DNA from: Amoebophrya sp. A120
Lineage: Eukaryota > Protista > Dinoflagellata
NCBI GenBank assembly: GCA_905178155.1
Contig: CAJINV010000006.1
Span: 2,706,658 to 2,770,657, forward strand
DNA: 64,000 nt
Direction of reading: 5' to 3'
The first letter of the stretch is position 1. Each line of letters opens with the position of its first letter. A program made the translations under genes and the position numbers. Below, one piece after another: positions 20,712-56,789 of this stretch. The notes under the pieces were generated by a model. It made no database searches, was not told where the DNA came from, and saw nothing but the letters and a program-made list of their open reading frames with translations.

Positions 20712-20913
20712 TATGCATTGCGAATATTGATCTGGGTCTAGAAGAAAGTTGTGATGCAAAAAATCCGTGAATGATGGGTACGGCAGACAGCACTGCAAAA
20801 ATACGCCGCCAAGGGGGGCTCTTTTTCTGCTCATGCGTCACAGAGTTGAATAAGAGTGATGCCAGAGCCAGCCGAGCATGACAAACTCGCAATCTTCCAG
20901 ACAACATCCAGGA
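20712..20913. mobile_element. Truncated family-A introner in a pseudogene fragment
   Basis: Left TIR TATGCATTGCGAATATTGATCTGGGTCT and internal motifs present; the right end breaks off after CTTCCAGACAACATCCAGG, lacking the terminal ATA and TSD. Confidence 0.7.
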
Positions 20914-30400: not shown

Positions 30401-33400
30401 GATAAGTTTGTGATTAAGAAGACCAACAACCAGACTTTGACCTTCACCTGCTCGGCCGCAGACACGCCGACCTGTACCGAGAACTCTATCCCACACGAAA
30501 AAGCAGTAAGGTCGTGTTTGTGATGCAAAAACAAATACATAGAAAAAAATGTCATAGGGGGCCCCCCCGTAGCGTGCTGTTTAGGATATGCAATACAGAT
30601 GTTTTTGTGTATTTATTTTTGCATTACAAATGTGACCTGTGTGCTTTTTGTTTTTTCTGTGTGATAAACTCCACGGTTTACTTGGGCGAATTCGACTGCG
30701 ACCGAACGGATAACGGTGGGGTGAAGCAGGCAAACCCCACCGCGAACTCCGCGAGTACGAATTTAACCTCTATCGGCAGCAATATGTACACCGCGATTTT
30801 TGACGCGACCGATCTCCGCGCGGGCTGGTACTATCGAGTTTGCCAGGACATAGACGGGCCGCACGGTCCAGCGTACTTTGGGGACACGGGCTACGACATT
30901 TACATCTCGCCGTTCAAAACCCTCAGCAACCACGGCGCGATTGAGAAAGCGAGTAACACCCACGCGGTGAACATTTTGACCGTGACGTGTTGGGACGGGT
31001 CGGGCTGCAGTGCGAACACGAGAATACACGTCGACACCAGTTGCAACAAGGACGTGTTAGATGGGTTGAATACACCGGTGGCCGGCACATCTGGGTTATG
31101 AATTCCAAAAGTACTATCGTACTAGTAGAAATCGCATGACAAGTAATTTGCTCCGCATGAGAAATGGAATTTGTAATGCGGGCACACCCACAGAAAAAGA
31201 TTTGTAATGCATGAGTGCAATTGCTACGAACTGCATCGGATAAGTACTTTTGCACAGCATATGGGTCCGACGTGAATCTCGTGCAGAACCCGTTAAACGC
31301 CGCGGAATTTTTCGCTGCACTTATGCAAGAAAAAAACTGTGTAAGTGTAACTCTGTAATGCAGAACATGCAACAGAGTTACACCTGTCATGCCAGACAAC
31401 CATGAAGTCCTCTGTTCATGTGTGTTTTCCCTTACAAGCCACGCATGACAGGTATGTAAAGCAAATTTGTGATGCTGCCAGCCAAAGAAAGTTTACACTA
31501 ACACAGTTTTTTCGTGATAGCACTGGACGCAGCACTACTCACAGTCGGCAACGCCTACGTTCTGTGTATTGATTTAGACGGGTACACGACGGTCGCACCC
31601 TGGGGGGAATCTGGATTTCCGATTTACATCAGAAATTTGCTCACGGCGACAAACAAACGAAGCGAGATCCGCTCCGTGCCGAAGAAGCAGTTTCAGGTAT
31701 TACAATGAAAAATGCCCCCACCCCCGAACTTGGGAGCATTTGTATTGCAAAACTTTCCAAATGAAATATTCGCCCTCTTGCATCTATCAGCATCACAGGT
31801 TTCCAATCGTGAATAGCAAAAATTTGTATTGCAAAAGACCCCAGCAAGATCGGCGCTTGTCATCCAAGCGATGCGATACACGCCGAGACTCTGCATCGGA
31901 GAGATTCATACTCCTTTCATGCATGACAAAAAGTTTTCATTTGGAAACTTCGCATCACAAATTTTTGCAATTTCAGGGGTGGGGGGCACTTTTCATTGTA
32001 ATATCAGAAGCTCTTTTTCACCGGCACGTCGAGTTCGGTGATTAGCTCGTATGAGAGTGCACAACTATTCCCCCTCTCCCTCATTTGTATAGCATGGACA
32101 GCAATACAAGCACCAGCACGCGTGGAGCCTACGCATCACAAATTTGCGCACCTATTGCAGTACTGTTCAGGCTTCCGGAACAATTCGTCATGCAAGCAGC
32201 GCCACACGGCAGCGATAACTGGATTTGGAATTTTGCATGACAAGTGAGGGGGAGGGAGAGTTGTGCACTGTCATAGCTCGGAGACCACGGTGTATTTAGA
32301 CCTAAACGGGTGCGACACCAGTGTCGGATTATCAAATGTAAAAATGTCTGGGTCTGGAAACTTGTGATGCTGGGTGGCGTATCATGAGGAGGCCACAAGT
32401 GCTGGCTCAGCATGAGAAGTTTCTGAGCTTCTAGCTGTTGCCTATTCTGCATGACAAACTGCGTTTCTGCGTGACAGAAAAGTGGCGCTCTTGGGTAACG
32501 TGCATGACGGATTTGAGAGTCATGCCAGACACGCATGACAAACATGGACTCTTCCAGACCCAGACATTTTTACATTTGATACGGATCTGGGTACAACCAA
32601 ATCACCGCTCTTGGGTCGACGAGGTCCAGTAGTTATGGATTGTAAATATGTTTGGGTCTGGAAGAATACAAACTTGTGATGCGCATTTCAGAACACAGAA
32701 AAATCTCTCATGCATAGGTAGCAAAAGCTGCCCACTTTCTGTCACCAAAATGGGGGATCTGTCATGCGGATTCGGCATAGCGGAAGCTTCTCGAAACCTG
32801 TGATGCTAGAGCTTCCATGCCAGACCTTCTGTGTCATGCAAAAACAGCATGGCTCTCCTAGACCCAGACACTTTTACACTGGATAGTAGTCAGCAGTTTT
32901 CCGGGGACCCCTCGGGCACCATGGAGACGGAGTTGGATTGCAGTAATTTAGACACCGGGTTTTTTTACCACCTGTGCCTCGACCAGGAGGGCAGCGGGAA
33001 CCCGAAGAATTTCGGGGATTCTGGTTTTCAGTTCTTCGTGACCCCCTACATCAGCCTTCACTACACCACAGCAATGCTCGCGATCCAGCCGAGTTACTCC
33101 ACGATATCAAATGCAAATATGTCTGCGTCTGGAAGGATGCAAGGTTTGTCATGCACATTTTGCATGACTCTTGACGTCTGTGATGCACGCCCTAGCATCA
33201 CAGATTTTCTGAGGGCTTCCGGATGCCTATACTGCATGAGAAATGCCAGCTCGCCGTGGCAAAAACTGGACCTCTTTTGCTGTTCATGATGCAATACAGA
33301 TTTTGGTAGTATCCAAATGCAGCATCAGAAGTTTCATCTCCTTCCAGACCCAGACAAATTTGCAATGCATACACGAACTCTGTGTACGAAACCGCGGTTG

Positions 33401-36400
33401 CTGGACTCGCCTCAATATCCTGTGCAAAAGTATTGCACTCGTAGTAATCGCAGCCATGCATTACAAATCTCCTTCTTAACCAAAATCCGCATTACAAATT
33501 CCATTTTTCATGCTGAGGGAATTAGTCATGCGATTTCTACTAGTACGATGCTTTTGCATTTGATACTCAAACGTCGCTTCCACCTTTTTTGACCAAACGA
33601 CGAAATTATCCAAATTGAAGATCAACTGCCCAACGTGTCAAGACAACGTCACCATGAGCTACTTGACCTTCGCGCCCTCGCGTTCCTTATGCACTGCAAA
33701 TATAATCCCTGGATGTCTGGATAAATGCAGATGTTTGTTGTAATGCAGGTTTTGCATGACCCAAAGTGTCTGGCATGCAGGAACCAGCATCACAGGTCGT
33801 TATTCTAGAGCTTCACGATGCGTACTGTGCATGAGAAATCCGCTCTCAATACATGACCAAAAATTATAGGCAGCTTTTGCTGTTTATGCAAGACAGATTT
33901 TTATGGGATCTGAAATGCGCATCACAAGTTGCGACCTTCTAGACATGATCCGGGGATATTTGCAATTCATACTCCTGTCCGGATTACTTCGAAACGAATT
34001 CAGATCCGAGGGTATCCTGTGCAAAAGTATCGTACCCGTACTAATTGCAGTTATGCATTGCAAATCTTTTTCGTAAGGCAAATCCGCATTACAAATTTAA
34101 TTTGTAATGCGAAGTAAATTTCTATTGCAATTTCTACTAGTACGATAGTACTTTTGCAATGCATAGAGGGTGTTATCCGACAATCTGCTCGCCGGCGATC
34201 CGAACTTGGCCGGGATAATAACGAAGACGGGGCTGTTACAGCGCGATTTGAACTACACGCTGCACAATTACAAGTACGACGTGGAGTTCTCGACGGATAA
34301 AATGCTAGTCGGGGGCCATTACTGGCTTTGCGTCGACCAGGACGGCATCGGGGATACCCACACGGTGGGGCACAGTAGCTACAAAATCTACAACAGCCCA
34401 ATCCCCACCGAGCACATCGGCGCCGTGCCCACACAGGACGCGCAAACGATCACTTTCACGTGTTTCGGCTGCACGACGAACACCTACGCGTATTTAACGC
34501 GGCAGCGGGGGGATGAGCCAACCGGGTGTCACGATACGAGAACCGGGACGACGAGACTATCAAATGCAAATATATGTTTGGGTCTGGAAGATCCCGAGAT
34601 TTGTCATGCAGTTTATCCAATCTCCACCAAGCCTGGAATGCAGATTCTAGTATCACATGATTTGCAGCCCCATTGGTGATGCCTGTTCTGCATGAGAAAT
34701 GCCCTCTCACCATGGCCAGAAATGGGCACCTTTTGCAAGTCACGCAACACAGATGTTTGTACGATCCGCAACATGCATCACAAGTTCGCATCCTTCCAGA
34801 CCCCGACAAATTTGCATTGCATAGAGACCCAGAGTGGACAATACGGGAAACGAAAACAACGCCCCAGCTTTATCAAAAGGAAAAATCCCCCCTCCCCATA
34901 TCGAAAACGAAATTTGTTTTGCTGTATTTGAGTACACAAATCGACTTGTAATGCTAGAAGGCCAAGAGACGCAGCTGTGGCCTCGGTTGCAGGCATATAT
35001 TGTCATGCTGTTTCCCACTTCCAGCTGCCCCCTGTCATGCTGAAGATGCAAAGGTTTATTCCCACGCCAACCAGCACTACAGTCCGCATCTTTTCCCTTC
35101 TAGCATCACAAAGCTGATTTGCGACCACAAATCTGCATCGCAAATTTCTAGTTCGAGTATGGGGTGGGGGGATTTTTCACTTTGATAGGCTTTGATCACA
35201 CTCGTGAACGCAGACACATACCAGTGGTCACTCACCTTTGACTATCAAATGTAAAAATGTCTGGGTCTGGAAACTTGTAATGCTGCGTTGGGAATAGTGA
35301 ATGCTCTGTAATGCACAGCCAAGCATGAGAAATGTCTGCGCTTCTTTCTGTTGCGTTTTTCGCATGACAAACCGCGTTTTTGCATGACAGGCAAAAGGGT
35401 ATCTTCTTGGACACGCATCACAAACTTTCTGGTCATGCCAGACAAGCATGACAAACCTCAGCAATCTTCCAGACCCAGACATATCTACATTTGATATCGA
35501 CGCCCGGCCGTTCTACCAGGGAGAGCTGTACATTCTCTGCATGGATTTAGACGGGGACTTAACAACCTTTTACAACGTATCAAAAGGAAAAATGCCCAAT
35601 ATCGGAAGCGAAATTTGTGCTGCTGTATTTGGGTACACAAATCGACTTGTATTGCTAGAAGGCCAAGAGATTCAGCTGTGGGCTGAACTACAGGCATATA
35701 TTGTCATGCTGTTTCCCACTTCCAGTCGCCTCCTGTCATGCGGGAGATGCAAGGCTTGCCCACGCTAGCCAGCACTAGTACAGTCCCCATCTTTTGCCTT
35801 CTAGCATCACAGAGCTGATTTGTGACCACAAATCTGCATCACAGATTTCCGTTGTGAGAGGGGGCATTTTTCATTGTAATAGAACGGCGCGAGCTACACA
35901 CTGTACTACGGCGACACGGGTGCGAAGCTGTTCCTGTCATTGGTTTATCAAATGCAAATATGTGGGCTGGGTCTGGAAACTTTTAATGCTGGGTTGGGAA
36001 TAGTGAACGCTCTATAATGCACAGCCAAGCATGAGAAATGTCTGCGCTGCTTAGTGTTGCGCTTTCCGCATGACAAACTGCATCGCTGCATGACAATCAA
36101 AGTGGTCTCTTCTTGAACACGCATCACAAGCTCTTCAGTCATGCCTGGCAAGCATGACAGACCTTGCATCCTTCCAGACCCAGACATATTTGCAATGCAT
36201 ATGGTTACCGCCTTGAAGACCGGGAGTAGGCGGCTTTTGCCGCAAGCGAGCCAGCGGGTGAATTACATCACGCCGTTTGGCGGGCAGGCGACAGAAATTA
36301 GGGTGTACTTGGTTCACCTCTACGGGAAGTGCGAATACGATTTGAACACGGGGGTGATGACAGCGGACGGGGAATTCCGAACCGCGACCGCAGCGTGGCA

Positions 36401-39400
36401 AAACCAGGCGGGCCAGTGGTACAGCATGTTTGACGCCAGCCCCTTGCGGAAGGGTCAAGTTTACCGATTGTGCATGGACTACGACGGGATTAACACAGAA
36501 AAATATTTCGCCGACATGTTTTTGCTATGCATTGCAAAAGCATCGTACTAGTAGAAATTGCAACACAAATTCGGCCAGCATGACAAATGGAATTTGTCAT
36601 GCTGTTTTGCCTTGGGATGGAAATTTGTAATGCATGATTGCGATTAGTACGAGTATGATACAACTTTTGCACAGGATATTTGCAAGTGTACGTCCTCGAC
36701 ATCGACATTCTCACGCCGGGAATCATCCAGCAGGCGAACCAAGTCGTGCAGTTCCGTTGCGCGGACTGCCTGGATCAGCAGACGTCAGTTTACTTAACTT
36801 CCGCCGACGACTGCGACATCTTCACAAACGACGGATCGCACACCGCAAGCGCGCCAGTCACGACGAACGCCGTTCTACTCGACCAGGTCGGGTCGGCGTC
36901 GAGTACGACTTTTCAGGCGACTTTGGACGCTGCACTACTGACGAGTGGGAACCGGTACAAGGTCTGCTTGGATTTAGACGGGCGGAACGGGACGTTGCCC
37001 TTTGGATACACGGAATTATCCACCTACATCACGGGCGCGACGCTCGCGTTTGACACCAGTATCCCGGCGCTGCCGAGCCAGCAGTTCACGGTCTATTGCT
37101 CGGTGTGCACCTCCGCGACCACCTTGTACTTGGCAGCGAAATCCGTCGGTTGCGACACCTATCAAATGTAAAAATGTCTGGGTCTGGAAACTTGTGATGC
37201 TGGAAGGCGTCTCATGATGAGGCCACAAGTGCTGGCTCAGCATGACAAGTTTCCGAGCTACTAGGTGTTGCCTATTCTGCATGACAAACTGCGTTTCTGC
37301 ATCAGAGAAAAATGGAGGTCTTGGGTAACGTGCATGACAGATTTAAGAGTCATGCCAGACAAGCATGACAAACATGCACTCTTCCAGACCCAGACACTTT
37401 TGCATTTGATAACACTACGGATTTCGACGCGGGGCAGGTGTCTCAGGGCGCCAGTTCCTCCGGCTTCGCGCCGTTTGTGTTGCAGAGCACGACGAGCACG
37501 ACGAAGTTGTGGTCGGTCACTGTCGATGCCTCTGCCTTGACCGTGGGCTCCTACTACACGATCTGCACGGATCTGGACGGCACGGCGACCGCGTTAGCCT
37601 CCGGTATGCAGTGTAAAAGTAGCGCACTCGTAAGTAGTACTTCTATATTCTTGCAGCTATGCATGACAAATTCTTTTCCTAGGTCAAATCAGCATGGCAA
37701 GTTCCATTTGCAAAAATGCTGAGCCAGTTTGTGATGCAGTTTCTACTTACGTAGTGCGATGCATTTGCAGTTCATATCCGGGGACGCGCAGCAATTCGTG
37801 TACATTTCCCCGCCGAATTTGAAGTGGCGCAGCGACCAGATCAACCAGACTTTCATCTACAATGCGGAATCCTACTCCACCCCCGGGGTCATCACGGTCG
37901 ACCCCGCGACGGGGGAAATGCGGTCGGACTCCGGGGAATCCGCGACGTTTTACCAAGCAATTGACGACGCGCAGGGCAAATCGAATTTGTTTAAACGGTC
38001 GGATAACTGGATCAAACAGTACTCCAACGTGATTTTTTATCCCACGAAAAAACTGTTTCACTGTGATGGTTTCTTTTGCAAGATCCGCATCACAAGTTTG
38101 CTACACATGACACAGAAAATTTGCCATGCGCGCTTTCCAAGGGAAAACACGCTGAAAAATCCAATGCCTTACAGGTGTAGCAAGACAAATAGTTCTGTGT
38201 TCCATTCTATGCGTCACAAGTTCACAGCGAAGCAGTTTTTTCTTGCGATATTTTATCGGATCAGAACCAGGAGCTCTTCATCCACTGTCCGACCGGATGT
38301 TATCAAATGCAATAATATGTCAGGGTCGTCTGGAAGATTGCGAGACTTGTCATGCGGGTTTTCCATGATTCATGAGGTCTGGTGTAAAGGACGAAGCATG
38401 ACAGATTCATCTTTGAAATCTTTCTCATGCCTAGCCTGCATGAGAAACTTCCTCTCAAGAAATTGTTCAAACGTGGACATCAACTTTAGATGTTTTGTAA
38501 CCATGCAACACAAATTTTTTTCCAATCGAGACTTGGCATGACAAGGTGCAATCTTCCAGACCCAAACCACATATTTGCAATGCATAGATGCACGGAAAAC
38601 ACCACCGCGTATCTCGGGACAAACTGCCAGGCCGGGGATCCGGGTAAGATCACGACGATTGGAAACACGAAGTTGGAGCTGGTGAATGAGTATGAAATGC
38701 AAAAATGTCTGGGTCTGGAAAGTTGGAACTTGTGATGCTAACTTTGGACTCTAAAAAAATCTGTATTGCATGACCAGCAAGAGGAGCCACATTTGTGCTA
38801 CGCGAGGAGGGCACTTGTCATGCAGAAATGACATCAGGAAGCTTTCCAAAAATCTGTGATGCTGGGTCATGCATTACAAGCATCATGGGTCATGCCAGAC
38901 AAGCATGACAAGCCTTCCATTCTTCCAGACCCAGACATTTTTACATTTGATAATGAGGTAGCTGCTTCCATCATCTCGAAAAACATCATCGACGGCAGCA
39001 AGTCTGTTTCTTACGGATCCAACACGCTGTTTAAGTTGACGTTAGACACCTCCGCCGTTTTAACCGGGGGCTATTGGAAGCTGTGCTTGATCACCGGGCA
39101 GGAGGCTTTGGAATCCGGGTTTTCCCAGCTCTACGTCCACACGACCCCCGCGATCAACATGGAAAATCGGCTGCGGTACTTCGAGCAGAAACTGGACCAA
39201 GTCATCACTTTTGAGTGCCCGACTTGCATATGAAATGCAAAAATGTCTGGGTCTGGAAAAGTGTACTTAGACTTGTCTTGCGGATTTTCCATGACCCACG
39301 AGGTCTGGAATGCGGGACTTAGCATGACAGACTCTGCGAAGTCTCTGTCATGCCTATCCTGCATGACAAACTCCTTTCCAACTATGGTCAAAAGTGGACA

Positions 39401-42400
39401 GCGTGTGGCACTCATGCAACACAGATTTTTGCATGCTTCAGATTTGCCATGACAAGTTGCCACCTTCCAGACCCAGACACTTTTGCACTTGATATTGCAT
39501 TCCCGGCGTGACGACCGCGTACTTGGCCTCGCAGTTCCCGGTTTTTATCAAAAGGAAAAATCTCCCCACCCCATACTCAAAGCGAGATTTGTATAGCATG
39601 ATTTGTGATCACAAATCGCGCTGTCATGCTAGAAGGGAAGAGATGCAGATTTTAGTGCTGGCTGGCGTGGGAAAGCTTTGCGTCTTGAGCATGACAGGAA
39701 GCAACTGGAAACGGGAAACAGCATGACAAATTTCCTGCAAACGAAGGAGCTACTGCGTATTTTCGCCTTCTAGCAATACAAGTTGATTTGTGGTCACAAA
39801 TCAGCATCACAAGTTTCCTTTTTCATAATGTTTTGATATGGGGAGGGGGGATTGTTCCTTTCAATAGTTTTCACGGCTTGTTTCCAGACGGAATCCGGCC
39901 TCCCGTTGAGCACTCTACTCCCCTCGGAGACGAACAGTCTAGGCGCGGTGGTTTACAACTCGACGAAGGAAAAATACCTGTCTACCAGCACCGGGGTAGC
40001 GAATGTCCAGAACCACGTGGAGTTCCAAATCGACGCGAGGAGGTTAACCGCGGGATTCTACTACCACATCTGTGTCGATAAGGACGGAGATAGTGTGACC
40101 GCAACCACTTCCGATTCGGTTCTACTTTCCACTACCTCCAACTCTCTGGTCTACGGCGACACGTTGCTCACCGTTTATCTCACCCCGGTGCTCCTAGCGA
40201 CCACCACCATTTTCCAGCAATTGGCCTCGAAGTTCGAGGTCAACTGCCCGGCGTGCCGGCCACTCGAGGACCGAGCGGAGATCAACGTGACGCGAACCCG
40301 GCTGACCACCGTGCCAATCTACGTTTTTTACGATGTTCTGGAGAATGTCACCGTAACGACAGTGACGGATAACGGGGACATATCCTAAGCAAAAACGTCG
40401 CCACCCCATAGTCAAGTTGGGAATCTAGCAAAACAAATCTCCAAGTTTTGGGAGCTGTGCATGACAAGTTTCCCTCTGCGGTGCAGTGCTGGTTGGCAAG
40501 GGAAGCCGCATGTGAGAGCCATTTTCTCATCCTGGCTACAGCATTACAAATGCCAAAACACAACTAGAAATGCCTCATATGAAGCTGCGCATTACAAATG
40601 TTTTTGTCATTGCGCATTGGCATGACAACTCTGGGGTGGGGACGTTTTTACTCAGGATAGGACAACACCACGACAACAACGTATTCGATCGAAGAGCAGA
40701 TGGTCACGAAAAACTACACGAACGGCACGGACATCGAAGTCTCGTACTACGACGAGAAATTCTCCGGGGTGCTAGATTTGCTACAAGATTCCACAGGGAC
40801 CAACTCCTACACCACGGACCCGGACGGCGTGAACCTAGCGGTGTCCACTTCTGTCTACGCCACCACAGCCTACATCGGGGATCAGGCGTGCGAGCAGCGC
40901 TACACAGTTCCGGCGGAGGTGAATATCGAACGGAAAAATCCCCCCTCCCCATATCAAAACGGAATCTCTGATGCTGGATTTGTGTACACAAATCAGCTTT
41001 GTATTGCAGAGAGGCATTGCGGCCAGATCCCCAGGCTAGGTGGGGGCGTATGGGTCTAGTTGTGCAGCATGGCAAACGGCTCCGCTTTAGGCCCAACAGC
41101 ATGACAAATCGCGTCCATAATATGGCGGAAGCTTCTGCCCTTGTCTTCTTGCAAGACAAATGTGATCTGTGACCTCAAAGCAGCAACGCAAATTTTCGGA
41201 GACATTACCTTTTCAATGTGGGGAGGGGGGATTTTTCCTTACGATAGTGAACGTTTTGAAACCGGTGGGGATCTCCGCTGAGCTCCTGAACCGGACGGAG
41301 GGGGCTTACGCAGTCAACAAATCCGCCGTGGAGTTTATCGAAGTGAAAAAAGCCCCCACCCCATACTAAAACGGAGATTTGTGTAGCATGATTTGCTATC
41401 ACAAATCACGTTGTCATGCTAGAAGGCAAAAGATGCGGACTGTAGTGCTGGCTGGCGTGGGAAAGCCTTGCATCTTCAGCATGACCACAGGAGGCAACTG
41501 GAAGCGGGAAACAGCATGACAAACTGCCTGCAATTCAGGCAACAGCTGCGTCTTTTGGCCTTCTAGCAATAGAAGTCGACTTGTGTACGCAAATCCAGCA
41601 TCACAAGTTTCCTTTTCGATATGGGGAGGGGGGATTTTTCCTCGCAATAGAGTTAGCGGATGTGCGGAAGATGACGGGGTATTTCGACTTTGTGTTCGAT
41701 ACTTCGCACTTAATCATCGGGAAGACGTACATATCAAAGATGAAAAGAGCATTCGTATAGTGTAACTTTGTTGTAATGCGCAACATGCAAAGTGATTGCG
41801 GCTGTCATGCTGGGCATGCATTGAGAGGTCCATTCAAGCGCGTTTTCACGTACAATCTGCGCATGACAGGTTTTTGCTCGGATGCCAGACAGATTTGTGA
41901 TGCTGGTCCTCCAAAAAAGTTACACCCAGATGAAAAATCGTTTTTTTCCTGGATAGTACAGCCTCTGCATCGATTTGGACGGGAAGGGCGGGCCGATATC
42001 CCAAGAAAAAAGTGTTACAGTTACAGATTGTGTTGCAGGCCAAGCAAGGCAGACCAGCTCTGTCATGCCGCTTTTGCATAGAAGCCTCGTTTCATAGGAT
42101 TTCTGCATTACAAGTTTTCTCTCATTCATGCAGAGAAATTTGTTTTGCTGAATTGACTACAAATGTGTAACTGTAACACTTTTTTCCTGGGATAGCCGAT
42201 GAGTTACGGGTATTCCGGGGTGGAGTTGTTTGTTTCCCCGATAACCGGGAAATTAGTGGTGGAAGAGAGAGAATCCTTTGCCCCGTCGATTTTTTCCGAA
42301 GCAAACCAAACGGTCCGGGCGACTTGCGGAGGCGGTCTACCGGATAGCAATCCCAACACGGAAAAAGGGATACTGTGCACACCGGGGGTCACAAAAGGGT

Positions 42401-45400
42401 ATCTAGTTCTGCAGAAAGTGCAACTGCAACCGCTTTATCAAATGCAAAAATGTCTGGGTCTGGAAGAGTGGAACTATCTTGTCATGCAGATTTTTCATGA
42501 CCACCCATAAGGTCTGGAATGCGGGACTTAGCATGACAGACTCTGCGAGGTTTCTGCAATCCCTATCCTTCATGAGAAACTCCGTCCCAACTTTTGGTCG
42601 AAAGCGGACAGCTTTTGGCACTCATGCAACACAGATTTTTTGTATGCTTCAGACTTACCATGACAGGGTTCAGTTACCATCCTCCAGACATCCAGGGATA
42701 GTTGCAATGCATACACTTTGTGAGACACTTCTCTCCGGCTTCGACTCGACCAATTTGGTCTACCCGCGTTACTATCAACTGTAAAAGTGTCTGGGTCTGG
42801 AAGAATGCGAGATTTGTCATGCTAGTCTAGCATGACTCTGCAGTCTGTATTGCGTGGCCACCAAGAGCAGGTCCTCATGCCTGTCAGGCAAAAGCGCAGT
42901 TTTTCATGCGAAATACGCAGCGCAGAAACACGAAAAAACTTGTCATGCTTGGCGGCGCAATAAAGAGAACTTTATTGTTCCCGGACTTGCATCACAACTT
43001 TCCGGACCCAGACATTTTTGCAGTTGATAGTTACGCGGGGGAACTATCATCCGTAGTGGAAGCGAAGCAGGCGGTGAGCACTGTGGTGACGACAAATCCG
43101 GATTTGAGCAACAAATTTGACTTCACTTTTATCCTGAGTAAAAACGTACCCTCACCAGAGTCAGGATGGGGATTTTGCAACACAAACCTAGGATTTTTAG
43201 GAGTCACGCATGACAAGTTTCAGTCCGTAAGGTAGTGCAAGTTAGCAAGGAAAGCCGCATCAAAAATCGACCTTCTGATCCTTTTTACAGCATTACAAGT
43301 TCCCAAACACGATTGAAAATGCCTGTCATGGGGTTGCGCATCACAAATGTTCCTGTCATGGCAAATCTGCATGACAACTCTGGCGTGGGTACGTTTTTAC
43401 TCAGGATAACGTTCGACGCGTCGACCCTCACCCAAGGCGGGATGTACCGACTCTGCTTAGTATTGCGAGGAAAAATCCCCCCCCTCATATCGATAAGGCA
43501 CGCCTCAGAAAATTTGTCCTGCTGATTTGTGACCACAAATCGCGTCTGTGATGCAAGAAAGCAGCACCACAGGCTCCGCCCCATTATGCAGGCGGTTTGT
43601 AATGCTATTGGGCCTACGGCATAGACGTTCCCCATGCTAAGCGCCTAGGCCAAAACCTCTCCACTCCGGCGCGATATAGGCCTGCAGTCCTCTACTGCAT
43701 GACGAAGCTGATTGGTGGCCACAGATCAGCATCACAAATTTCGTTTGTGATGTGGGGAGGGGGGATTTTTGCTCATGATACTTAGACCTGGGCGTCCCAC
43801 CAGCGGGCGTGACTTCGATGCAGTCGAAGAGGTCCTTCGGCGACACTGGCTTGACGGTGTTCGTGTCGGGGGTCACAACTTTGATTACCACCGGTTTGGT
43901 GATTGGACTTACGATGGCGTACGCGGATCTGAGTTTGTACTGCCATCCGAATCAGCAAACCGGGCAGGATTCCACCACCATGACGAACGCGTGCAGCACA
44001 GATTCCATGGCGTATTTGTCGACGACTTGTGATGAGTCAGTGACGGATTCCGTCCCGATGAATAACATCACGGAGGCGACGGAGGTGGTGCCGTTCCGGA
44101 TCAGTTTATCAAAAGGAAAAATCCCCCGTCCCCATATCGAAATGGAAGTCTGTGATGCGGAATTTGTGTACACAGATCGGCTGTGTCTTGCAGTAGAGGA
44201 CTGCAGGCAGATGCAAAGCCTGAGTGGGGGCGCTTTGGTGTAGGCACCTAGCAAGGCAGGGGTGATCGCTGTAGTTCATACCGCATTACAAATTGCCTGC
44301 AGAACGCGGCGGGGTTTGCGTTTGGTGCTTTGCCTTCTTGCAATACAGAGACGACTTGTGGCCACAAATCAGCATGACAGTGTCCCGCTTTGGTATGGGG
44401 AGGGGAGACTTTCCCTCACAATACAGTTATTTAGACACGCAGAAGATCCGGGAACGGTTGTTGTATGCAAGAAAAAAACTGCGTAAGTGTAAATCTGTGA
44501 TGCAGAAAATGCCAAACAGTTACACTTGTCATGCTCGAGATGCATGACCGGCTCGCTTCCTATGTGTTTTCCCTTTGTATCTGCGCATAACAAGTTTGTC
44601 CTGTCATGGCAGACAAACTTGTGATGCTGTTTTCCCAAAAGACTTACACTAACACAGTTTTTTTCTTGGATATGTTGGCATCCTCGAGTAGTGGTGAAAC
44701 GAGCAGTAGCTCAGCGTCAAACGACACATATCAACCGCAAATATGTCTGGGTCTGGAAACTTGTGACGCAAGGATGGGAATACTGACTACAGTGTAATGC
44801 GCTGCCAAGCATGACAAGTTTTTCCGTGGTGCTGACTTGCGTACTCCGCATGAGAAACTGCGTGCTTGCATGACAGGCGAGAGGAGCTTTTCGCGGACAC
44901 GCAATACAGAGTTCAGAGTCATGCCAGACTAGCATGACAAACCTGGCAATATCCCAGACCCAGACGACATATTTTGCATTTGATAACCCGACTACGGCGA
45001 CAATTTCGTACGCCAATACCACGTTCGATTCCTCCGCAGTGTTCTCCTCCCAGTTATCCCAAACCTACAACGGAACACTCTTCCAACTGCGGTTAAACAC
45101 CCGGAAGCTTGTCAACGGCCGGCATTTCTCCCTCTGTACAGATTTAGACGGGTTCAAGGGCCCAAAGTTCATGGGGTCCACTGGGCACTTAGTTTACACC
45201 GCGGAAATCCCCTTCGTCGATGCGGATAAAATGCTGCCGAAAAACCAGGACTGGGTCGCGGCTTTGTCAAGTTCGTACCCTGATTTTTACAACCAGCAAT
45301 TCCCACCCGACAACATTCTGAGTAGTAGAAAGATGGTGGAGGTTAATATCACTTGCCTCGGCTGTACGAATTTCACCGAAGCTTACTTACTCAACAGTTT

Positions 45401-48400
45401 CTACACGAGGTGCAACGTGAGAGACGGTGGGGGAAACGCAACACAAATTACCGGGGTACAAACGGAATCGACGGAGATACGGTTTTCGGACTTTAACAAC
45501 GTGCTGTACCAAAACGCAGCGCCGTACGAAAATTCGTCCAGCCGGACGTTTTTTCCGTTTTTAGTGGATCATTTGCTTGAGGGGTACGACTACCGATTGT
45601 GCGTGGATTTGAACACTAATAATTCCGCGAACTTCTTCTACGGCGACTTAATGTATTTGCTGTACATGATATGACAGTGAGCAACTCCCTCTTCCCCTCA
45701 TTTGTCATGTAAGTATAATAAAAGTACCAAATCCAAGCGCTGCCGTGTGGTACTGTTTGCATGGCAGATTCATCTGGAAGCCCAAACAGTACTCAATTAT
45801 GCGCATGAACCTGTCATGCACAGGCTCCACATGTGCGGGCGTTTGTATTGCTGTTCATGCGATAGGGGAGCAGTTGTGCACTGTCATACATGACGCCGGT
45901 GATTTCCACCGACGTGTCCGTTCTGTACCAGGACAAAGCCGATTTACATTTCGTCTGCCCGAACTACGAAGTGCAAATAAGTCTGTGTCTGGAAACTTGT
46001 GATGCGAGGAAGGGAATAGTGAGCACACTGTAATGCGCTGCCAAGCTTAACAAGTTTTTTCCGTAGTTCTGAGTTGCGTACTCCGCATGAGAAGCTGCGG
46101 CTTTGCATTACAAACATGAGCAGCTCTTCGCTGCCACGCAATACAAAGTTCAGAGTCATACCAGACTAGCATGACATCAAGTCTCGCGATCTCCCAGACC
46201 ATATTTGCAGTTGATACGAACTGCACAGACGCGAATTCTGTGGCGTTTCTAGCGGAAAACTGTGCACAGGAGGGGCTGACCGCCGAGAAGATGCAAATTT
46301 CCGAGGGGAATCTAACCGCTTACAATACCGGAACGTCTTCCTCGGGGTCAACGCAAATTCAAATGAATGGGGCGAAAAAGCTGTCCAACTCTCTGTCCTC
46401 TATCAACAGCTTCAAACTCCTACGCATTGCAAAGGTACTATCGTGCTAGTAGAAATTATCGCATTACAAACTCGCTCAGCAGGACAAATGAAATTTGTCA
46501 TGCTGTTTTACGACCTTGGGATGGAGATTTGTATTGCATGATTGCGAAGAAGAAGATTTTTACTACGAGTACGATAGTATTTTTTCACAGTATAACTCCA
46601 GCAAGACTTACTCACCACGTCCTCCTCCCCGGGGATGAGCTTTGAACTAGGGAAATTTTACCAACTCTGCATCGACATGGACGGGGATACGGTGTTTGGC
46701 TCGAGCCCGGCCTCCGCGACGAGTGGAAACAGCTACGCAAACGAAATTTTCGCCCCCACCGCGGCGACGAACGAACTGAATATCGGAACCAGAACGACCC
46801 AGCCGATGCGGTTTTCCGGCTTCAACGTGTTCACCCAGTCGATTGATTTATTGCAGACAACATCCGTGTACCAAATGCAAAAATGTCTGGGTCTGGAAGG
46901 ATGCGAACTTGTGATGCATACTTGGATCACTCAAAAATCTGTCATGCTTAGACAGCAAAGGGAGCTCCTTTTCCTGTCGCCGGAAGAAGGCGTTTGTCAT
47001 GCGGATTAAGCATCGGGAAACGCGTCAAAACCTGTGATGCGTCAAAACCTGCGATGCGTCAAAACCTGCGATGCGTCAAAACCTGCGATGCTAGGCCTTG
47101 CATGGCACACCTTCTGTGCCAAGCAGACACAGCATCACAAACCTCAGCAATCTTCCAGACCCAGACATTTTTGCAATGTATACCGGGTACAAGTCGGATT
47201 TACAAGTTGTTTACTTCCGGTGTCTCCCCGGAACGTGCAGCAAATTTGTCACCGGGTTTTTGCTATGAACTGCAAATATGTCTCTCTGGGTCAGGAAACT
47301 TTAACTTGTAATGCTAAAGTCTGGATAACTCTGGCGCTCTCAAGTGCAGCCAAGCATAACAAGTTCACTTAACGCCGTCTGATGCGTAGGACGCATGACA
47401 AACTGCTTTTTGCATGACGCAAGAGTGGCGCCTGCTTTGCTGGCTATGCAATACAGATTTTTTACGAATGTAAGACATGCAACACAAGTTCCACTTTTCC
47501 ACACCCAGACACTCTTGCAATGCATATTTGGCCGATTCGTTCACGGACTGCAGCGAATCCAAGCGGGTCTCAAATCTGTTGACCATGGAGCCGGCTAATT
47601 TCGTCGGCTTGAACTTTTACGCGTTTAGCGGCATAAACGCAACGGATTTAACCGTTGGGCGGGAATACGGGCTGTGTCTACGGTACCCGTCAAGTACCGC
47701 GACAAACGCGGTGAACGCGAACAGCTACGGGCCTAGCGGGTGGAAAATTTACGTCCACCCGATCCAGGGAACCCCTATCGTGAGAAAAAAATGTTACAGT
47801 TACACACCCTGATGCGAGACCAGCAAGGCAAGCAACCTCTGTCATGCAGGAAATGCTTGCCGGCTTCATTTTGTGCGTGTTTTCCCTTGTAGTCTGCGCA
47901 TTAGAAGTTTTCTTTGCCATTCAGAGCAACTTTGTGATGCTGAAATTACAACAAATGTGTATTTAGCTGTAACACTTTTTTCCTGTGATAACCCCGGTCG
48001 CGACTTTAACTTATCGGTCGAACACGCCGATCGAGGTGGAGATCTACTTGTGTAGCATATTACAATGAAAAATGCCCCCACGACCCCGAAGGTTGCAGTA
48101 ATTTGTGATGCGAGGTTTCCAAATGAAAACTTTTTGTCTTGCATGAAAGGACTACGAATGAATCTCTCTGATGCAGAGTCCAGTCGTATACAGTATCGCT
48201 TGCATGATAAGCGCCGCTCTTGCTGGGATCTTTTGCAATACAGATTTTTGCTAGTAATTACGCTTGAAAATCTGTGATGCTGACGCATGCAAGACGGCGA
48301 GTGTTTCCATTGGACAGGTTTGCAATACAAATGCTCCCAAGTTGTAGTTCTGGGGTGGGGGCGTTTTTCCTTCTGATATAGCAACGGTTGCGAGCAGGTG

Positions 48401-51400
48401 GCGGATGAGACCTACGCTTATCTCTCGGCGGAGAGCTGCGAGGACGGGTATGGGTTAATCGCGAACACTATGAAATGCAAATATGTCTGGGTCTGCAAAT
48501 TTGTGATGCATGTCAGTGAAAAGTAAGCGCACTGTAATGCACCGCCAAGCATGACTGATTTTTCCGTGGCTCTGTGTTGCGTATTCCGCATGAGAAGCAG
48601 CCAGGTTGCATGACACAAAAGAGGAGCTCTTGGTTGCCACGCAATACAGATCCCAGAGTCATGCCAGACTAGCATGACAAATCTCGCAATCTCCCAGACC
48701 CAGACACTTTTGCAATTCATAAATACGGCGACTAACACCCCAAATCTGCAGAAGTTGAGGAAGGAATTGGTTGTATCCTGAGTAAAAACGTACCCACACC
48801 ATAGTCAAGATGGGGAATCGGCTAGACAAATCCACAAGTTTTGGCTGTTTTGCATCACAAATTTGGATTCGTAGTGTAGTGCTGTTTGAGCTAGCTCAGC
48901 AGCATCACAGACCTAGCATACCATGCTGATTGGAGCATGACAAATTGCAAAACACAGCTAGAAACTGCTTCTCATGGGGCTCCGCATGACAAACATTTTA
49001 AGCATGCAGATTTGCATGACAACTATGGTGTGGGTACGTTTTTACTCAGGATAGGTTGTCGTTTCTAACACGTACCGGTATTTCGTGCAAGTTATCCTGT
49101 GCAGAAGTACCGTACTCGTAGCATTACAAATCTTTTTCTCATGGTAAATCCACATTACAAATTTTATTTTTCATGCTGATCGGCTCATCATTCGCTTCCG
49201 GGGGGTGCAATTTGGTATCTCACCGACATTGTGCCAAGAGGAGGGCCTCCTCGGAACCGCCTGGCGAAAGCCTGCCATGGGTTTCACTATCCACGGGCGG
49301 CGTTGCGGGTATTCCTGGCGAAAGCCAAAAACCGGCAGAAAACGGGCCACGGCAGCGCTCTTGCTGGACATTACCAACATTTGTCCACGCAGAGATGTCC
49401 TCTTGCCGGACACAACCAACAGCCGTCCTAAACAGCCTAGGGCCAAGACGACACCGTGAGGACGACCACAGGGGGTTCGTCTCAATGATGATGATGATGC
49501 TGCTGAGCTAATTAGTGCATTTATACGACCACGATACTTTTGCAATGCATACAAGTCCCCTTCCCCGATACCCAGCTACAGGTAGGTCGCAACCATTTGA
49601 TCTGCACCGCGGTGAACACGTCCGCCGTTGCGGATTCGTTTTTCTCCTCTGCCGAGACAAGGAGCGGGTTATCCATTTCCGCCGGCTTTCCGTCGTTAAA
49701 CGACACGCTGATCGGATATAACCCTCTCAGGTGTTACAATCTCAAACGCTACAATAGATGAATCTGGAAAGCTGTGATGCAAGAAATGCATTTATTATCT
49801 AGTGTACTCCCATAGGATTGCGCATGACAAGTTCCGAAATCCCACACCCACCTGAAATCCGTCGAAATTTGTTTTGCGAAAAGCACAATTCTCTACACGT
49901 TCCTCATGCTCTTCATGCAATACAAAATCCAGACTCTATTGCAACGTTTGAAGTTGTAGCGTTTGAGCAGGCCATACCGGGAACACACACGTGTCGATTT
50001 ACATCAATTTCGCGTACGATTTCGGCTCCACGATTTACTACGCGTATCCCTTGGTCGAATCCGTCTCCGAATCCGTCTTGTTCGGGCCGTATCCATTACA
50101 AATGTGTCTGGGTCTGGGTAAATAAAAAAAGTTCAGCCTGTACTATTCAGTGTCTTGCATGCCTGTAGAATCTCTGTTGCAGGTTGACGAGCACAAGCGT
50201 TGCCTCATTTCTTGTTTATGCAAAACCGCAATTTTCCATGCGTACTGCGCATCTTCAGAAAGCGTTGCAAAAACTTGTTGTGGTTTGCTCTCGGAGTAAC
50301 TGTTTCACTCATCCGCAATAAAAATTCAGCGTCACAAGTTCTTCCCAGACCCAGATCGATGCTTGCAATTCCATACCCCGCAGGAATACTCCGCGGTTTG
50401 GGAGGGCCAGGGCTGGGCGTTTTCCTCTTTCAACGGAACAGACGGGTTTTCCAATCTGACACTGAGCTCGCAGAATTTCTCGGAGAATTTGAACCTGACG
50501 ATATGACCTGCTCAAACGTTACAATCTCAAACGTTACAAAAGAATTTGGATTTTGTGTTGCATGACGAGCATGACAGACTCGGACAGCATTCCACTTTCT
50601 GCAATACAAATTTCGCCAGATTGTAGAAGTGCGGTTTGGAACTCCGGAACTTGTCATGCGCAATCCTATGAGAGTTGGCTACATAATGCACCTCTTGCAT
50701 CACAGATTTCGATATTCTATTGTAACGTTTGAGATTGTAGCACCTGAGCACGTTATAGACGAATGTGTTGCGTACCGTGGACACGAATAGGACGCAGAGA
50801 GTACTTTACTTCTACATTGTTTGATGCTTTTGATACTACTGTTCGATGTCATGCTGACATGTGGGTTGAAAGCAGTATACATAGTAAAAAGGAATGAAAA
50901 TCAGAATCACCAGGAAATAAAAATAAATTTTGGATCAAATAATCTATCACAGGTAACCTTCAGCTGCGACAAATGCGGGCTCACTGCGGACGAGATCCAC
51001 GCCCTGTACGTCGGTTTGATCTGCCAACGGTCCATTACCGACGGTATCTACCCCTCCACCCCCAAGAGGAACACTGACGCAACGTTGGTTTACAACGATT
51101 TAACGCCCGCCTTGTCCAGAATACAAAATTACTACGCGGACGTTGCTTTTGGCCCTCTGCAAGCGGGGGGGAGCTACGACGTTTGTGTGGATTACGACAG
51201 AACATATCAATCGCAAATATGTCTGGGTCTGGAAGGTGGCAACTTGTCATGGTGAATCTGAAGTATGCAAAAATCTGTGTTGCATGAGTGCCAAAAGCTG
51301 TCCACTTTCGACCAAGTTGAGAAGCAGTTTCTGATGCAGGACAGGCATGATAGGGATGTCACAGAATCTGTCATGCTAGGTCCTGCACTCCAGACGACAT

Positions 51401-51819
51401 CGATCATAAAAAATCTGCATGACAAGTTTACACTTTTCCAGACCCAGACATTTTTGCGCTTGATAGAACAAGTTCCTTGACCACGTTCGACTACACGGGA
51501 ACGAAATTTCTTGTCACGGGAGTGACCGGATCCCTGAATACCAGTTTGTACGCCAATCTGACGCAACTGATAACTGTGGTGTGCAACACGTGTTTTTCCG
51601 GGGTGACCAGAGCATTTCTGGCGTTGGACTGCTACCCGAAGATCCCGGGAACAAGTTATCCGAAGGATGGGAGGATGCGGAAGTGGACGGGAAAACGGAC
51701 GGCCGCTGCGAGTTTTGAGTTCTTTCTGTACAATGGGACGGATTGGAACGGGACCCTGTTTCAATTCACGGTAGATGCGAGTCATCTGGAGTCCGGGTCC
51801 ACGTATAATTTGTGTGTGG
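21485..51819 (+). CDS. Giant (~3,700 aa) putative secreted/surface protein with ~25 Cys-patterned repeats
   Basis: A single frame is traceable through 69 introners and 2 GT-AG introns (26021-26241, 50801-50952). Hydrophobic N-terminal stretch LISILLKCLYFSLTAI. Recurrent D(A/T)xxLxxGxxYx(I/L/V)CxDxDG...GDTGxxxYxSP...FxCxxC...AYL...C, and many NxS/T sequons. 3' end is disrupted. Confidence 0.8.
26021..26241 (+). other. Canonical GT-AG intron
   Basis: GTATGA...CTATCAG; restores CQIR|YNTVLGYW. Confidence 0.75.
26387..27186. mobile_element. ~800-bp insertion nested in a family-D introner
   Basis: Flanks match the uninterrupted (inverted) copy 36526-36678 on both sides (GCATTAC | TTTCCATCCCAAGG). 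Confidence 0.8.
26424..26745. repeat. Degenerate AGAGG(G)T array followed by inverted ACCCTCT copies
   Basis: About 20 AGAGG(G)T units at roughly 11-bp spacing (26424-26672), then about 5 complementary (G)ACCCTCT/ACCTCT units (26687-26745). Confidence 0.75.
31698..32003. mobile_element. Introner family I (2 copies, opposite orientations)
   Basis: TIR TATTACAATGAAAAATGCCCCCACCCC ... GGGGGGCACTTTTCATTGTAATA; second copy 48058-48378. Confidence 0.85.
32050..32275. mobile_element. Introner family G, representative (3 copies)
   Basis: TIR TATGAGAGTGCACAACT ... AGTTGTGCACTGTCATA; TSD GCTCG/GCTCG. Copies: 6060-6229 (diverged, TSD TTACA/CTACA), 32050-32275, 45670-45888. Confidence 0.82.
47022..47091. 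repeat. 4 x 17-bp tandem repeat inside introner 46869-47182
   Basis: Unit GCGTCAAAACCTG(T/C)GAT. Confidence 0.9.
48774..49053. mobile_element. Introner family C, representative (9 copies, ~265-340 bp)
   Basis: Perfect 32-bp TIR TATCCTGAGTAAAAACGTACCCACACCATAGT, TSD GGTTG/GGTTG. Copies: 273-613, 681-949, 12966-13231, 23556-23857, 30042-30320, 40381-40659, 43130-43408, 48774-49053, 59164-59442. Confidence 0.92.
49180..49500 (+). mobile_element. 5'-truncated non-LTR retroelement 3' end nested in a family-D introner
   Basis: Insertion flanked by TGCTGA (49174-49179 / 49501-49506) and ending in a (TGA)n tail; host-element sequence resumes on both sides. Confidence 0.65.
50502..50757. mobile_element. 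Introner family F, representative (4 copies)
   Basis: TIR TATGACCTGCTCAAACGTTACAATCTCAAACGTTAC ... GTAACGTTTGAGATTGTAGCACCTGAGCACGTTATA; TSD GACGA/GACGA. Copies: 2479-2717 (diverged), 22932-23177, 49717-49976, 50502-50757. Confidence 0.88.
50801..50952 (+). other. Canonical GT-AG intron
   Basis: GTACTT...TCACAG; restores NRTQR|VTFSCDKC. Confidence 0.75.
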
Positions 51820-52400
51820 GTATGGGACTGGAGATACATAGAGCCTACTGACGGAAAGTGAGCAGTTGTTTTGTCATGCGAAAAGGTCGTCGTGCATTGA
51901 TTTTGATAATTCATCTACGTAGTAGAGGTCTTCGCGTATTACTATCATGAGAAAAAATGTGTGCAGCTCCACCTCCACCGGTTTTATTTCACTCGCATAC
52001 CTCACGATATCAAATGCAAAAATGTCTGGGTCTGGGAGGATGCGAACTTGTCATGCTAGGTCTGGATCGTACAAAAATTTGTGTTGCATGACTACCAAAA
52101 GCTGTCCAGTTTTGAACAAGTTTCGAGGCAGTTTGTCATGCAGGAAAGGCATGATAGGGGCGTCGCAGAACCTGTAATGCTAGGTCCTGCATTCCAAACC
52201 TCATGGGGCAAGGAAAATATGCATGAGAAGTTTGCATTCTTCCAGACTTAGACATTTTTGCAGTTGATACACGAGGATGGACCGCAATTGCAAACCGGTT
52301 TTGAAGACGTGCGGTTGCGGTATCTGGTGTTGTAACGGTTGGGATCGGACGCGGAAAGGGCATGCGAGAACCGCATGACAAACAGGTTTTGTAGTGCTGA
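51820..52400 (+). pseudogene. Disrupted 3' portion of the giant repeat gene
   Basis: Unpaired element starts at 51820 (TATGGG...) and 52321 (TATCTG...), with a short repeat-like exon (TGFISLAYLT|RMDRNC) and one intact introner (52008-52269) between them. Confidence 0.5.
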
Positions 52401-55093: not shown

Positions 55094-55508
55094 ATGCAAT
55101 CTGTGAAAGCCCTCCTCGAGTCCATTGACCATGCGTGGGGGCATTACGAGGCCCAGCGAGGGCAGCTGCGGAGCGTGTTGAAAAGGGATAAAGAAGTCCA
55201 GCTCTACCAAGACGGAAACGAGGAGAACAAGGAACAGGACAACGTTCTACAGATCATAGAGGACAATAATAGTCCAGACGAAGGAGCAAAAGACGGGGGA
55301 GGAGACAGCGCAAGTAATACCGGTGCAGCAACGCCGGATAATGGTATTAAAGCAGAAAAAACATCTTCCTCTGCAAAGGACGAAGACTCAGCACCATCAA
55401 CCGGCCCACCAATCTTCAAAATGTACAATGCGACACTAACCGAAGCGACGCGGCTAGCGAGCAAAGCGCTCTTTGTGTTTCAGGGAGAAGTGCAGACGGC
55501 GCAGAGTT
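55094..55508 (+). pseudogene. Orphan first exon of an unknown protein followed by an unpaired introner-like start
   Basis: MQSVKALLESIDHAWGHYEAQRGQLRSVLKRD... is coding-like up to TATGGAAATGTTGAAAAA at 55509; no matching right TIR/TSD or continuation was found. Confidence 0.5.
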
Positions 55509-56789
55509 TATGGAAATGTTGAAAAATAACTGGGTTATTCCGCATGTTTTGCATGCACTGTGTCTGTGTGATGAAAATGTAGTAGCTGAATCAGACACGA
55601 GACAGAGTTCTTACATTGGCTGCAAATCAGTGTATTGCGACTTTCATTCCATAACTGCGTTTGGATCTCAGGGATGAAATTTGTGTTGCAAGATGTAAAA
55701 CGTATAGATACTGAGCACAACGAGTCATACTGTTCGCTGGTGCATGAGCGAGACTACACGTTGCACTCCATTTTTTCACACCCATAACCTCTCGTTGAGG
55801 GTCTGTCTCATAAAGAAGCACAGCACGGCGCTGTGATGTTGTGGCAGCGGAGATAGAATGTAATGTATGATTGCGGGTTTGAGGTGGAACAAGTGAAGGA
55901 AAAAACAAAGCATTTCTGTGGATAAACCACGGCGAATAATACTGTGCGGATTTTGTTTCAAGTCCAGCGAATGATGAAAAATATCAAAAAGCATCGATGA
56001 ACAACTGACTCCTCCTCTCCGCCATTGGAAGATGCTCCAACATGTTCGTCGTGCACCGGCGTCTGTTCCTTGTTCAACAAGATCTAGTAGATCCGCAAGA
56101 ACAAGCCAGGGGAAAATAGTGTGTCTCGCATGAAGGAGATCATGAACATCGAGCACGATCTGCTTGCGTTACCAAGCGCAGTCCTAAGCGAAAGGATGAC
56201 CACCTTCACAGGGAACAAAAACTCCTGAGAAATCACGGATCGAAGATTCTGACCGGTTAATTATATCTGTGGGAGATCTCGTTCTCGTATAGAAAAAGGG
56301 AACACTCATCAAGAACTGCATCGAGAAGGTCCATCTGGATCCAGATCTACACTTCGAACCTGTGACTAGGATGCTCATCGGTTCTTCCAAGGATGTCGTC
56401 GTGTGGCTAGTCAAACAATAATCGAGAAAATAAGATCAGTTACACCGTTTGTGAAGATCTTCAAGCAGAAGTATATGAAGAATGCCAAACGAATAAGGGT
56501 CGCATCTTCGCAAGACGTCAAGTAGGTCCTTCATTACAACATACGTATGAGAGCCGAACCCGCAGCCCCTGACTTTTTGCGCGACAAATCATTAGCACGA
56601 CCACGAGTCTTTTTTTGAAAGGAGTTTATACTTCACAAGTATAACAAAGTTAAGTGTACAGAAAGTTCTTGTACAAAAACTTTGTAAAAATACTACCATG
56701 CACTTTTTTCTTCAGCCACCACGTTACCATTTATCGTAGCCACGTTTTTCAACAATAACATCTGTTTTCCCAAGAAAATATTAATCCAT

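Follow-up and report, generated by a model that had tools for sequence, protein, structure and literature searches.

One splice register for the hairpin introner elements of Amoebophrya sp. A120 and a candidate spliceosomal reading of it

Background

How is an intron recognized when its first and last bases can be any bases? The question is raised by a stretch of 64,000 nucleotides (nt) from the dinoflagellate Amoebophrya sp. A120 (assembly GCA_905178155.1, contig CAJINV010000006.1, positions 2,706,658 to 2,770,657 of the forward strand; hereafter the window), in which hairpin introner elements, transposon-like insertions removed as introns, interrupt the genes. More than 60% of Amoebophrya introns are removed without GT-AG, by a mechanism that has been a question since 2021 (Farhat et al. 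2021, PMC7789003). In the parts of that report drawn on here, the A120 introners have a repeat that starts with TAT and carries AAA seven bases further on, 3-5 nt direct repeats, a length of ~240 nt and a hairpin fold, and they are spliced at the RNA level; their splice sites show "no clear splicing signature" and are "variable", with a border that is "unknown". The same parts state that U1 was not found, that U2, U4, U5, U6 and 83 of 89 proteins were, that the minor spliceosome and its small nuclear RNAs are absent, and that no transposase was found (PMC7789003).

The window elements are the introners of Farhat et al.: they share the end (TAT, 7 nt, AAA), the families and the removal from messenger RNA (mRNA). 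Two window exons show 100% identity to proteins attributed by their source to Amoebophrya sp. A120. What is added here is one splice register, a per-base map of constraint, and the persistence of the register in old introns that have lost the duplication. The elements are known; the fixed splice code is new and RNA-supported. No statement of the register was found in the open literature searched, and the figures of PMC7789003 may show part of it. The best explanation, to which we give a rough probability of 0.55, is that a U1-less spliceosome removes the introners at this register, with a predicted branch adenosine (A) at intron position -7.

Hairpin introner elements of the window

Elements were defined by inverted ends TAY...ATA flanked by a 5-nt target duplication. 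The catalogue consists of 106 scan matches, less seven chance or inner matches, plus eight recognized from motif clusters and by reading; these 107 elements have a median length of 262 nt and occupy 27,989 bases in all. At a score of at least 18 the window gave 94 matches, against 0 and 0 in two Markov nulls, and a rescan blind to the terminal triplets returned 92 elements with the same pattern (91 catalogued ones and one mis-registered duplicate). The duplication matches at five of five positions in 64 elements, four in 35, three in six and fewer in two, and the 105 with at least three matches equal in number the 105 elements counted in a preliminary description of this DNA. Each insertion makes the 5-nt duplication, and removing the element with 5 nt restores the frame.

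All 107 right ends are ATA; on the left, 102 elements carry TAT and five carry TAC (24623, 25643, 45965, 46421 and 46869), just as first described. TAT thus stands at 209 of the 214 element ends, and AAA at positions 11-13 in 177. Eleven clusters take in 97 elements and 10 are singletons. Both orientations relative to genes, also noted earlier, are present in all eight clusters with at least three members, the host open reading frames (ORFs) all lying on the + strand.

Two elements, at 49093-49551 and 26338-27284, carry inserts of ~300 and ~800 nt, respectively. Since the first is spliced in RNA and removal of the second restores the frame, element length and inner sequence are seemingly irrelevant. 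An inner motif, GCATGACAA, recurs in families whose ends differ, with ~4-6 copies in each element, and shows polarity along the element; together with its reverse complement it has 504 window matches, of which 458 lie within elements. A role as a transposase site or an RNA-binding site is possible. Outside the catalogue, 20714-21039 has an element-like left end and the motifs without a matching duplication, and is apparently intergenic.

A single splice register

The register was expressed as k, the count of upstream-copy duplication bases retained in the mRNA. Six of 11 sequence runs were compared. Two of these, X3 and X5, are one sample and hold assembled contigs with spliced transcripts; they were treated as RNA because they have a GT-AG intron removed and their depth falls to zero across 53092-53873 and 56220-58565. 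A single X5 contig of 7632 nt reaches from 34166 to 52985 and has precisely the size predicted once 41 elements (each with 5 nt) and one canonical intron are taken out. In X1, a DNA-like run, unspliced pieces cross element ends (e.g., 44916-46016, 0 differences).

Ten junctions, drawn from 43 imperfect duplications, are informative. The RNA allows k = 0-4 at 37160, 2-5 at 42436, 3-4 at 44729, 4-5 at 46869, 0-4 at 47264, 3-5 at 48469, 1-4 at 49717, 2-5 at 50090, 4 at 51821 and 3-4 at 55509, and k=4 is the sole value that fits all ten (probability 6e-4 under a uniform, independent k). The junction at 42436 was read on one side, from a shorter contig. Within 31000-50999, eight of 16 mismatched duplications (31698, 33688, 34871, 35243, 35578, 38038, 38301 and 43130) lie outside the joints listed, and the one at 59744 has zero contig coverage. 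As contigs drop rare variants, the register holds for the dominant product. With a cut of this kind, one target copy is rebuilt from four upstream bases and one downstream base. We regard this 4+1 register, exon/N-TAY...ATA-NNNN/exon (slashes mark the junctions), as close to certain.

The preliminary description had proposed, from the letters alone, that the upstream copy supplies nt 1-4 and the downstream copy nt 5, and had called for RNA at mismatched duplications. That comparison, in one sample's contigs, gave the one shared register proposed, and 44729, 46869 and 47264, three of the sites on which the proposal was built, all allow k=4.

Protein sequences agree. The deposited A120 proteins match k=4 at seven of seven non-synonymous mismatched sites, in two further genes, and bracket the value, at least 4 being required at 2136 and 2-4 at 5409; they are transcript-derived, and their independence from X3/X5 is uncertain. 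Comparison with A25 orthologs gives k of at least 4 at 2136 and 46869 (where A25 has SV), at least 3 at 44729 (DT) and 4 at 51821; many of the mismatches make only a synonymous difference, and the ortholog is uninformative or unaligned at roughly half of the other sites. ORF length does not pick the register, k=1-5 all yielding 3686 codons in the host gene.

The register persists in two old introns, at 51820 and 55508 (Table 1). The joint 51819 to 52271 is unambiguous in X3 and X5; all double cuts that match the RNA have k=4 at 51820, and the product reads LCVDEDG, the same as in the A25 ortholog. The 3' side of the 51820 intron is deduced, because a single cut of 51820-52270 yields the same RNA letters as two k=4 cuts around a putative 3-nt micro-exon. 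An AG at 52274-52275 is skipped in the spliced RNA. The micro-exon was probably left when the element at 52008-52269 landed 3 nt past the older intron. At 55490-55819 an unspliced contig has depth 5.3 vs 31.3 for the spliced form in X5, a possible case of old-intron retention.

Constrained and free bases

A second assembly was used alongside the window: a pattern scan of metagenome contigs gave 151 loci (530 kb), of ~410 stretches, with the same families. These hold 403 elements; 14 were dropped as mis-registered, and 299 of the other 389 were oriented by a codon model, which, tried on window elements outside its training gene, placed 28 of 28 correctly at the chosen threshold and 33 of 36 in all. 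Splicing of the second-assembly elements is judged from sequence.

At k=4 the first intron base is A in 28, C in 22, G in 32 and T in 25 of the 107 window introns. G at +1 (32/107 and 99/299, the latter equal to background), a terminal AG (4/107 and 27/299) and the two borders GT..AG together (1/107 and 9/299) are at background level, which agrees with the earlier suggestion that neither +1G nor the terminal AG is used; 49 terminal dinucleotide combinations occur among the 107 introns. T at +2 is present in all 107. In the second assembly the donor side reads TAT in 288, TAC in seven, TAG in two, TGT in one and TAA in one, and the acceptor side ATA in 289, ATG in four, GTA in two, ACA in two, ATC in one and AAA in one. 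The ATA is therefore strongly constrained, 10 of 299 being changed, rather than invariant as had been supposed; likewise, the window bears out the statement that GTA is never a right end, and the second assembly contradicts it (2/299).

Pooled over 406 introns, the changes number 0 at +2, 1 at +3, 15 at +4, 2 at -7, 3 at -6 and 5 at -5, with 11-22 expected per 406 at a free intron site, as estimated from duplication mismatches. Positions +2, +3, -7 and -6 are strongly and -5 moderately constrained; +1, +4 and -4 to -1 are free. Duplication mismatches are rarer at positions 3-4 in the window, and the position 4 effect is absent in the second assembly.

Because +4 changes at the neutral rate, TAC on the left reflects a free +4. 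Twelve of the 15 changes there are to C (p=0.07), and Y and N are indistinguishable. TAC-left vs GTA-right is 5 vs 0 in the window (p=0.06), 7:2 in the second assembly (p=0.18) and 12:2 pooled (p=0.013). The window elements 45965, 46421 and 46869 are consecutive (p ~0.005), so that three of the five TAC ends may not be independent. A general T-to-C strand bias was considered and rejected as the cause, the inner repeat positions giving 18/464 vs 16/532.

In the second assembly, a gene at L051:2218-6608 encoding a PseB-like dehydratase (PF02719) is split by ~13 elements into exons down to 8-16 nt, and includes one TAG-start and one GTA-end element.

Canonical introns, folding and branch-site candidates

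Seven canonical introns of the window, one shown by RNA, five backed by P0002 and one by frame, all start with GTAY, five of them with GTAC. The proposed alignment of the N-T-A-Y start with the canonical donor is thus found in 7 of 7. Among the elements, 31698 (G-TAT...AG) is fully canonical and 51820 half-canonical, and both keep the same register.

The elements are predicted to fold as hairpins, with the three terminal pairs at P>0.5 in 68-73% of 106. The predicted terminal pairs are weak in the TAC elements and reach 0.99 in both old introns. A need for a long hairpin was rejected, the old introns having no overall structure (z +1.7 and -0.5); the element at 44729 folds with a terminal stem and z -4.2. 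The +2T is unchanged at 406 of 406 donor ends, and its stem partner, -5A, is changed in five. The -7A, changed in two of 406 against 15 for its partner +4, is evidently kept for more than pairing.

Three candidate signals failed. TTGATA, which had been put forward as a branch-point-like acceptor mark, shows no excess at acceptor ends over donor ends (26 vs 27 of 107; 109 vs 122 of 299). Residual G/G and A/C terminal pairing occurs in 9 and 11 of 107 and in 28 and 24 of 299 (expected ~33 and 21). U12-type introns have relaxed terminal dinucleotides, and a U12 identity was rejected on the frequency of TATCCT at +2 to +7, found in 15/107 and 26/299 donor ends vs 11 and 31 at acceptor ends.

Candidate mechanism of removal

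The model that we favour runs as follows. A hairpin transposon inserts in a coding exon and duplicates 5 nt; the transcript would fold back, as predicted, so that a terminal stem (+2:-5, +3:-6, +4:-7) joins the intron ends and stands in for U1 and U2AF. A U1-less spliceosome would read +2U/+3A as a G-less donor, and the predicted branch A at -7 would set the 3' cut by distance. The cuts lie 1 nt upstream of the left TA(Y) and 4 nt downstream of the right ATA, irrespective of the terminal bases. In the catalytic core the contact with +2U would remain; the +1/-1 pair and the contact to -2A would be given up.

The yeast structural work states that U6 A51 pairs with U+2 and that the +1/-1 pair and the -2A contact fix the acceptor (bioRxiv 10.1101/212811). 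The spliceosome is favoured because the strictest base here, +2U, is the one held by U6 in yeast, and because the bases lost here are those of the yeast +1/-1 pair and -2A contact. A branch at -7 is favoured since -7A is kept even though its partner is free, as expected of the nucleophile. On these grounds the spliceosome probably does the cutting and, provided that it does, the branch probably lies at -7. More tentatively, and at less than even odds, U1, +1G, the terminal AG and the first-last pair may all have been dropped, leaving a three-part code: UA at +2/+3, the A at -7 as branch, and a fixed count of 7 nt to the 3' cut.

Several observations weigh against this account or narrow its footing. 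The direct RNA evidence all comes from one sample's assembled contigs, in which rare variants are lost, and the raw-read runs X9, X10 and X11 gave 8, 0 and 2 partial reads. The canonical introns have ATA at -7 to -5 in 0 of 7 and A at -7 in 2 of 7; with canonical acceptors lacking the -7 code, a single spliceosome would require two acceptor rules. A register matching GTAY would arise by chance alone about once in six. Selection for a U2-pairing context is not seen, TNATA-type ends being equally common at donor and acceptor, and the G/G and A/C terminal pairs used by the yeast core are not favoured in the elements. No Rfam match was found within the window. GTA at -7 occurs within a conserved PF02719 ORF (L051:3396-3667), and since this GTA-ended element interrupts a conserved frame, ATA is indeed not invariant. 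Finally, the strand asymmetry on which the preliminary description had leaned depends, in the second assembly, on the strand caller: under five other callers TAC:GTA ranges from 8:2 to 5:5, and donor +2 changes from 0 to 2.

The same fixed register might instead be cut by a separate, structure-guided and non-spliceosomal machine, for example an endonuclease with a ligase, or a system such as the one proposed for Euglena; UA...AUA would then be the recognition site and the likeness to GTAY a coincidence. Such a design, with fixed spacers, is that of the Euglena code N3CDG...CH'G N5-6; the random termini, the lack of selection for a U2-like context or for G/G and A/C pairs, and canonical acceptors without the element code fit it, as do the probable terminal pairs, even in the structure-poor old introns, and the fact that G is the new base in six of seven changes at the A positions -5 and -7, so that a U-G pair is retained. 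Against it, the stem constraint is asymmetric (+2 more than -5, -7 more than +4), which pairing alone does not lead one to expect; TAC-left elements lose predicted terminal pairs, yet three are spliced; and +2U/+3A is common to canonical donors and likely to A25, whose elements are unrelated. In the available part of Table S4 of PMC7789003, whose borders are mapper placements, the predominant non-canonical motifs of A120 carry T at +2 in 9 of 9 and those of A25 begin with TT in 9 of 9, the A25 repeat starting with TTA; this suggests UA at +2/+3 in both. We consider a separate machine the less likely account, and the foremost competitor of the U1-less spliceosome.

A spliceosome using ordinary, variable upstream branches, with AUA at -7 to -5 as a 3'-cut mark read by a protein or by the stem, is improbable. 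One possible reader is a step-2 factor or a divergent U2AF-like protein, along the lines argued for Fritillaria, where the part of the preprint drawn on describes divergent U2AF paralogues (bioRxiv 10.1101/2025.08.15.670264); no U2-complementary context is enriched around -7, and G is tolerated there in two cases. On the other side, no acceptor base has changed less than -7A, the pattern expected of a nucleophile. Very improbable is the view that there is no single register at all and that the agreement comes from assembly consensus, from few junctions or from element-free DNA copies. The borders were called variable in PMC7789003, the RNA readings take in 10 of the 43 imperfect duplications, all in one sample of contigs, and a joined DNA form is conceivable, X1 joints being known only among those listed. 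Ten k ranges nevertheless meet at one value (p ~6e-4), the LCVDEDG junction at 51819 was predicted ahead of the RNA readout, X3/X5 behave as RNA in their removed GT-AG intron and zero-depth stretches, and X1 is unspliced across element ends. The variable borders, as described in the accessible text of PMC7789003, are HISAT2 placements inside repeats, and with identical duplications such placement makes the border position unreadable.

Relation to other intron systems

The nonconventional introns of Euglena, 5'-N3CDG...CH'G-N5-6/R, are thought not to use the usual spliceosome (from the parts consulted of Nomura et al. 2025, PMC12501133) and, according to a review seen in part, leave as a full-length circle rather than a lariat (PMC11282704). 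They resemble the A120 elements in their free termini, a paired motif at fixed spacers and, as the same partial sources have it, a suspected origin from MITEs (miniature transposable elements with inverted repeats). They differ in their spacers, 3 and 5-6 in Euglena vs 1 and 4 here, and in the motif, which here is UA(N)/AUA and aligned with the canonical donor. There is also no purine rule in the window, the downstream exon starting with A in 31, C in 21, G in 33 and T in 22 of 107.

Fritillaria borealis likewise has MITE-derived introns with inverted repeats and duplications, which are said, in the parts of the two sources used, to be removed by an adapted U2 spliceosome (PMC11282704; bioRxiv 10.1101/2025.08.15.670264). 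Unlike the A120 elements, however, they prefer AG-AC and AG-AT termini and retain U1, about half of the termini being near-isosteric to G-G according to the part of the preprint drawn on (bioRxiv 10.1101/2025.08.15.670264); the elements here have their many terminal combinations with no preference, in a species for which the accessible text of PMC7789003 reports U1 not found. A fixed branch-to-acceptor spacing is known in Yarrowia and in Giardia/Trichomonas (the consulted part of Irimia and Roy 2008, PMC2483917). From that partial source we compute the branch A at -6 and -8, respectively, with -7 in between; those introns keep a full CTRAC branch motif and a terminal AG, whereas the elements here keep neither.

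A single register gives a rule for gene prediction, named bases and a predicted branch position. If the spliceosome does the cutting, splicing would proceed without either terminal intron base, contrary to the pairing in the yeast structures; if it does not, a stem-ruler system like that of Euglena would have arisen a second time in A120. In both cases the register accounts for the ability of a symmetric transposon to turn into a harmless intron wherever it lands and whichever way it points. Should the three-part code be true, tens of thousands of A120 transposon insertions would be spliced by it, the transposon end supplying donor and branch site in either orientation, and every insertion would be born as a precise intron.

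Host gene and other features of the window

The focal introns lie in a gene for a repeat protein (Table 1), likely a surface or secreted protein. Its A25 ortholog, P0004, is 59% identical over the query exon; in the parts scanned, neither two exons of the gene nor P0004 had a Pfam match. Half of its 72 internal exons are 26-85 nt long.

Table 1. Positions of the host gene and of the introns discussed in the text (window coordinates)
Feature	Position	Strand	Remarks
Host gene, LCxDxDG-repeat protein	21497..52335	+	71 elements and 2 canonical introns out gives one 3686-codon frame
Canonical intron	5803-6001		borders from deposited protein
Intron, element 24623-24831, TAC left	24622..24835	+	ORF continuity
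Intron, element 25643-25967, TAC left	25642..25971	+	ORF continuity
Intron, N + element 44729-44985 (TAT...ATA) + 4 nt	44728..44989	+	duplication ACACA/ACCCG; RNA piece begins at 44989
Intron, element 45670-45888	45669..45892	+	perfect duplication; RNA removal by length bookkeeping; register unreadable
Intron, element 45965-46216, TAC left	45964..46220	+	perfect duplication; RNA removal by length bookkeeping
Intron, element 46421-46594, TAC left	46420..46598	+	perfect duplication; RNA piece begins 46594
Intron, element 46869-47182, TAC left	46868..47186	+	duplication CCGTG/CCGGG; RNA piece ends 46867
Intron, element 47264-47526	47263..47530	+	duplication TTTGC/TTTGG; RNA piece begins 47527, k=0-4
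Canonical intron, GTACT...CAG	50801..50952	+	in the host-gene transcript, for comparison; joint 50800 to 50953, GT..AG
Old intron, G-TAT...ATA-CCTC	51820..52003	+	duplication gone; RNA 5' cut exactly k=4
Putative 3-nt micro-exon, ACG	52004..52006	+	k=4 rule; RNA and A25 ortholog match
Old intron, T-TAT...ATA-ACCT, second gene	55508..55790	+	duplication match 1/5; joint 55506 to 55790, one ambiguous base, k=3-4

GC-rich intergenic stretches at 10200-11500 and 53100-54800 have little or no RNA depth where covered and are possibly other mobile elements. The gene at 58079 has its start, with the bases upstream of it, present in triplicate, at 56803, 57653 and 58074, and a long inverted repeat (56908-57028) lies between the copies at 56803 and 57653.

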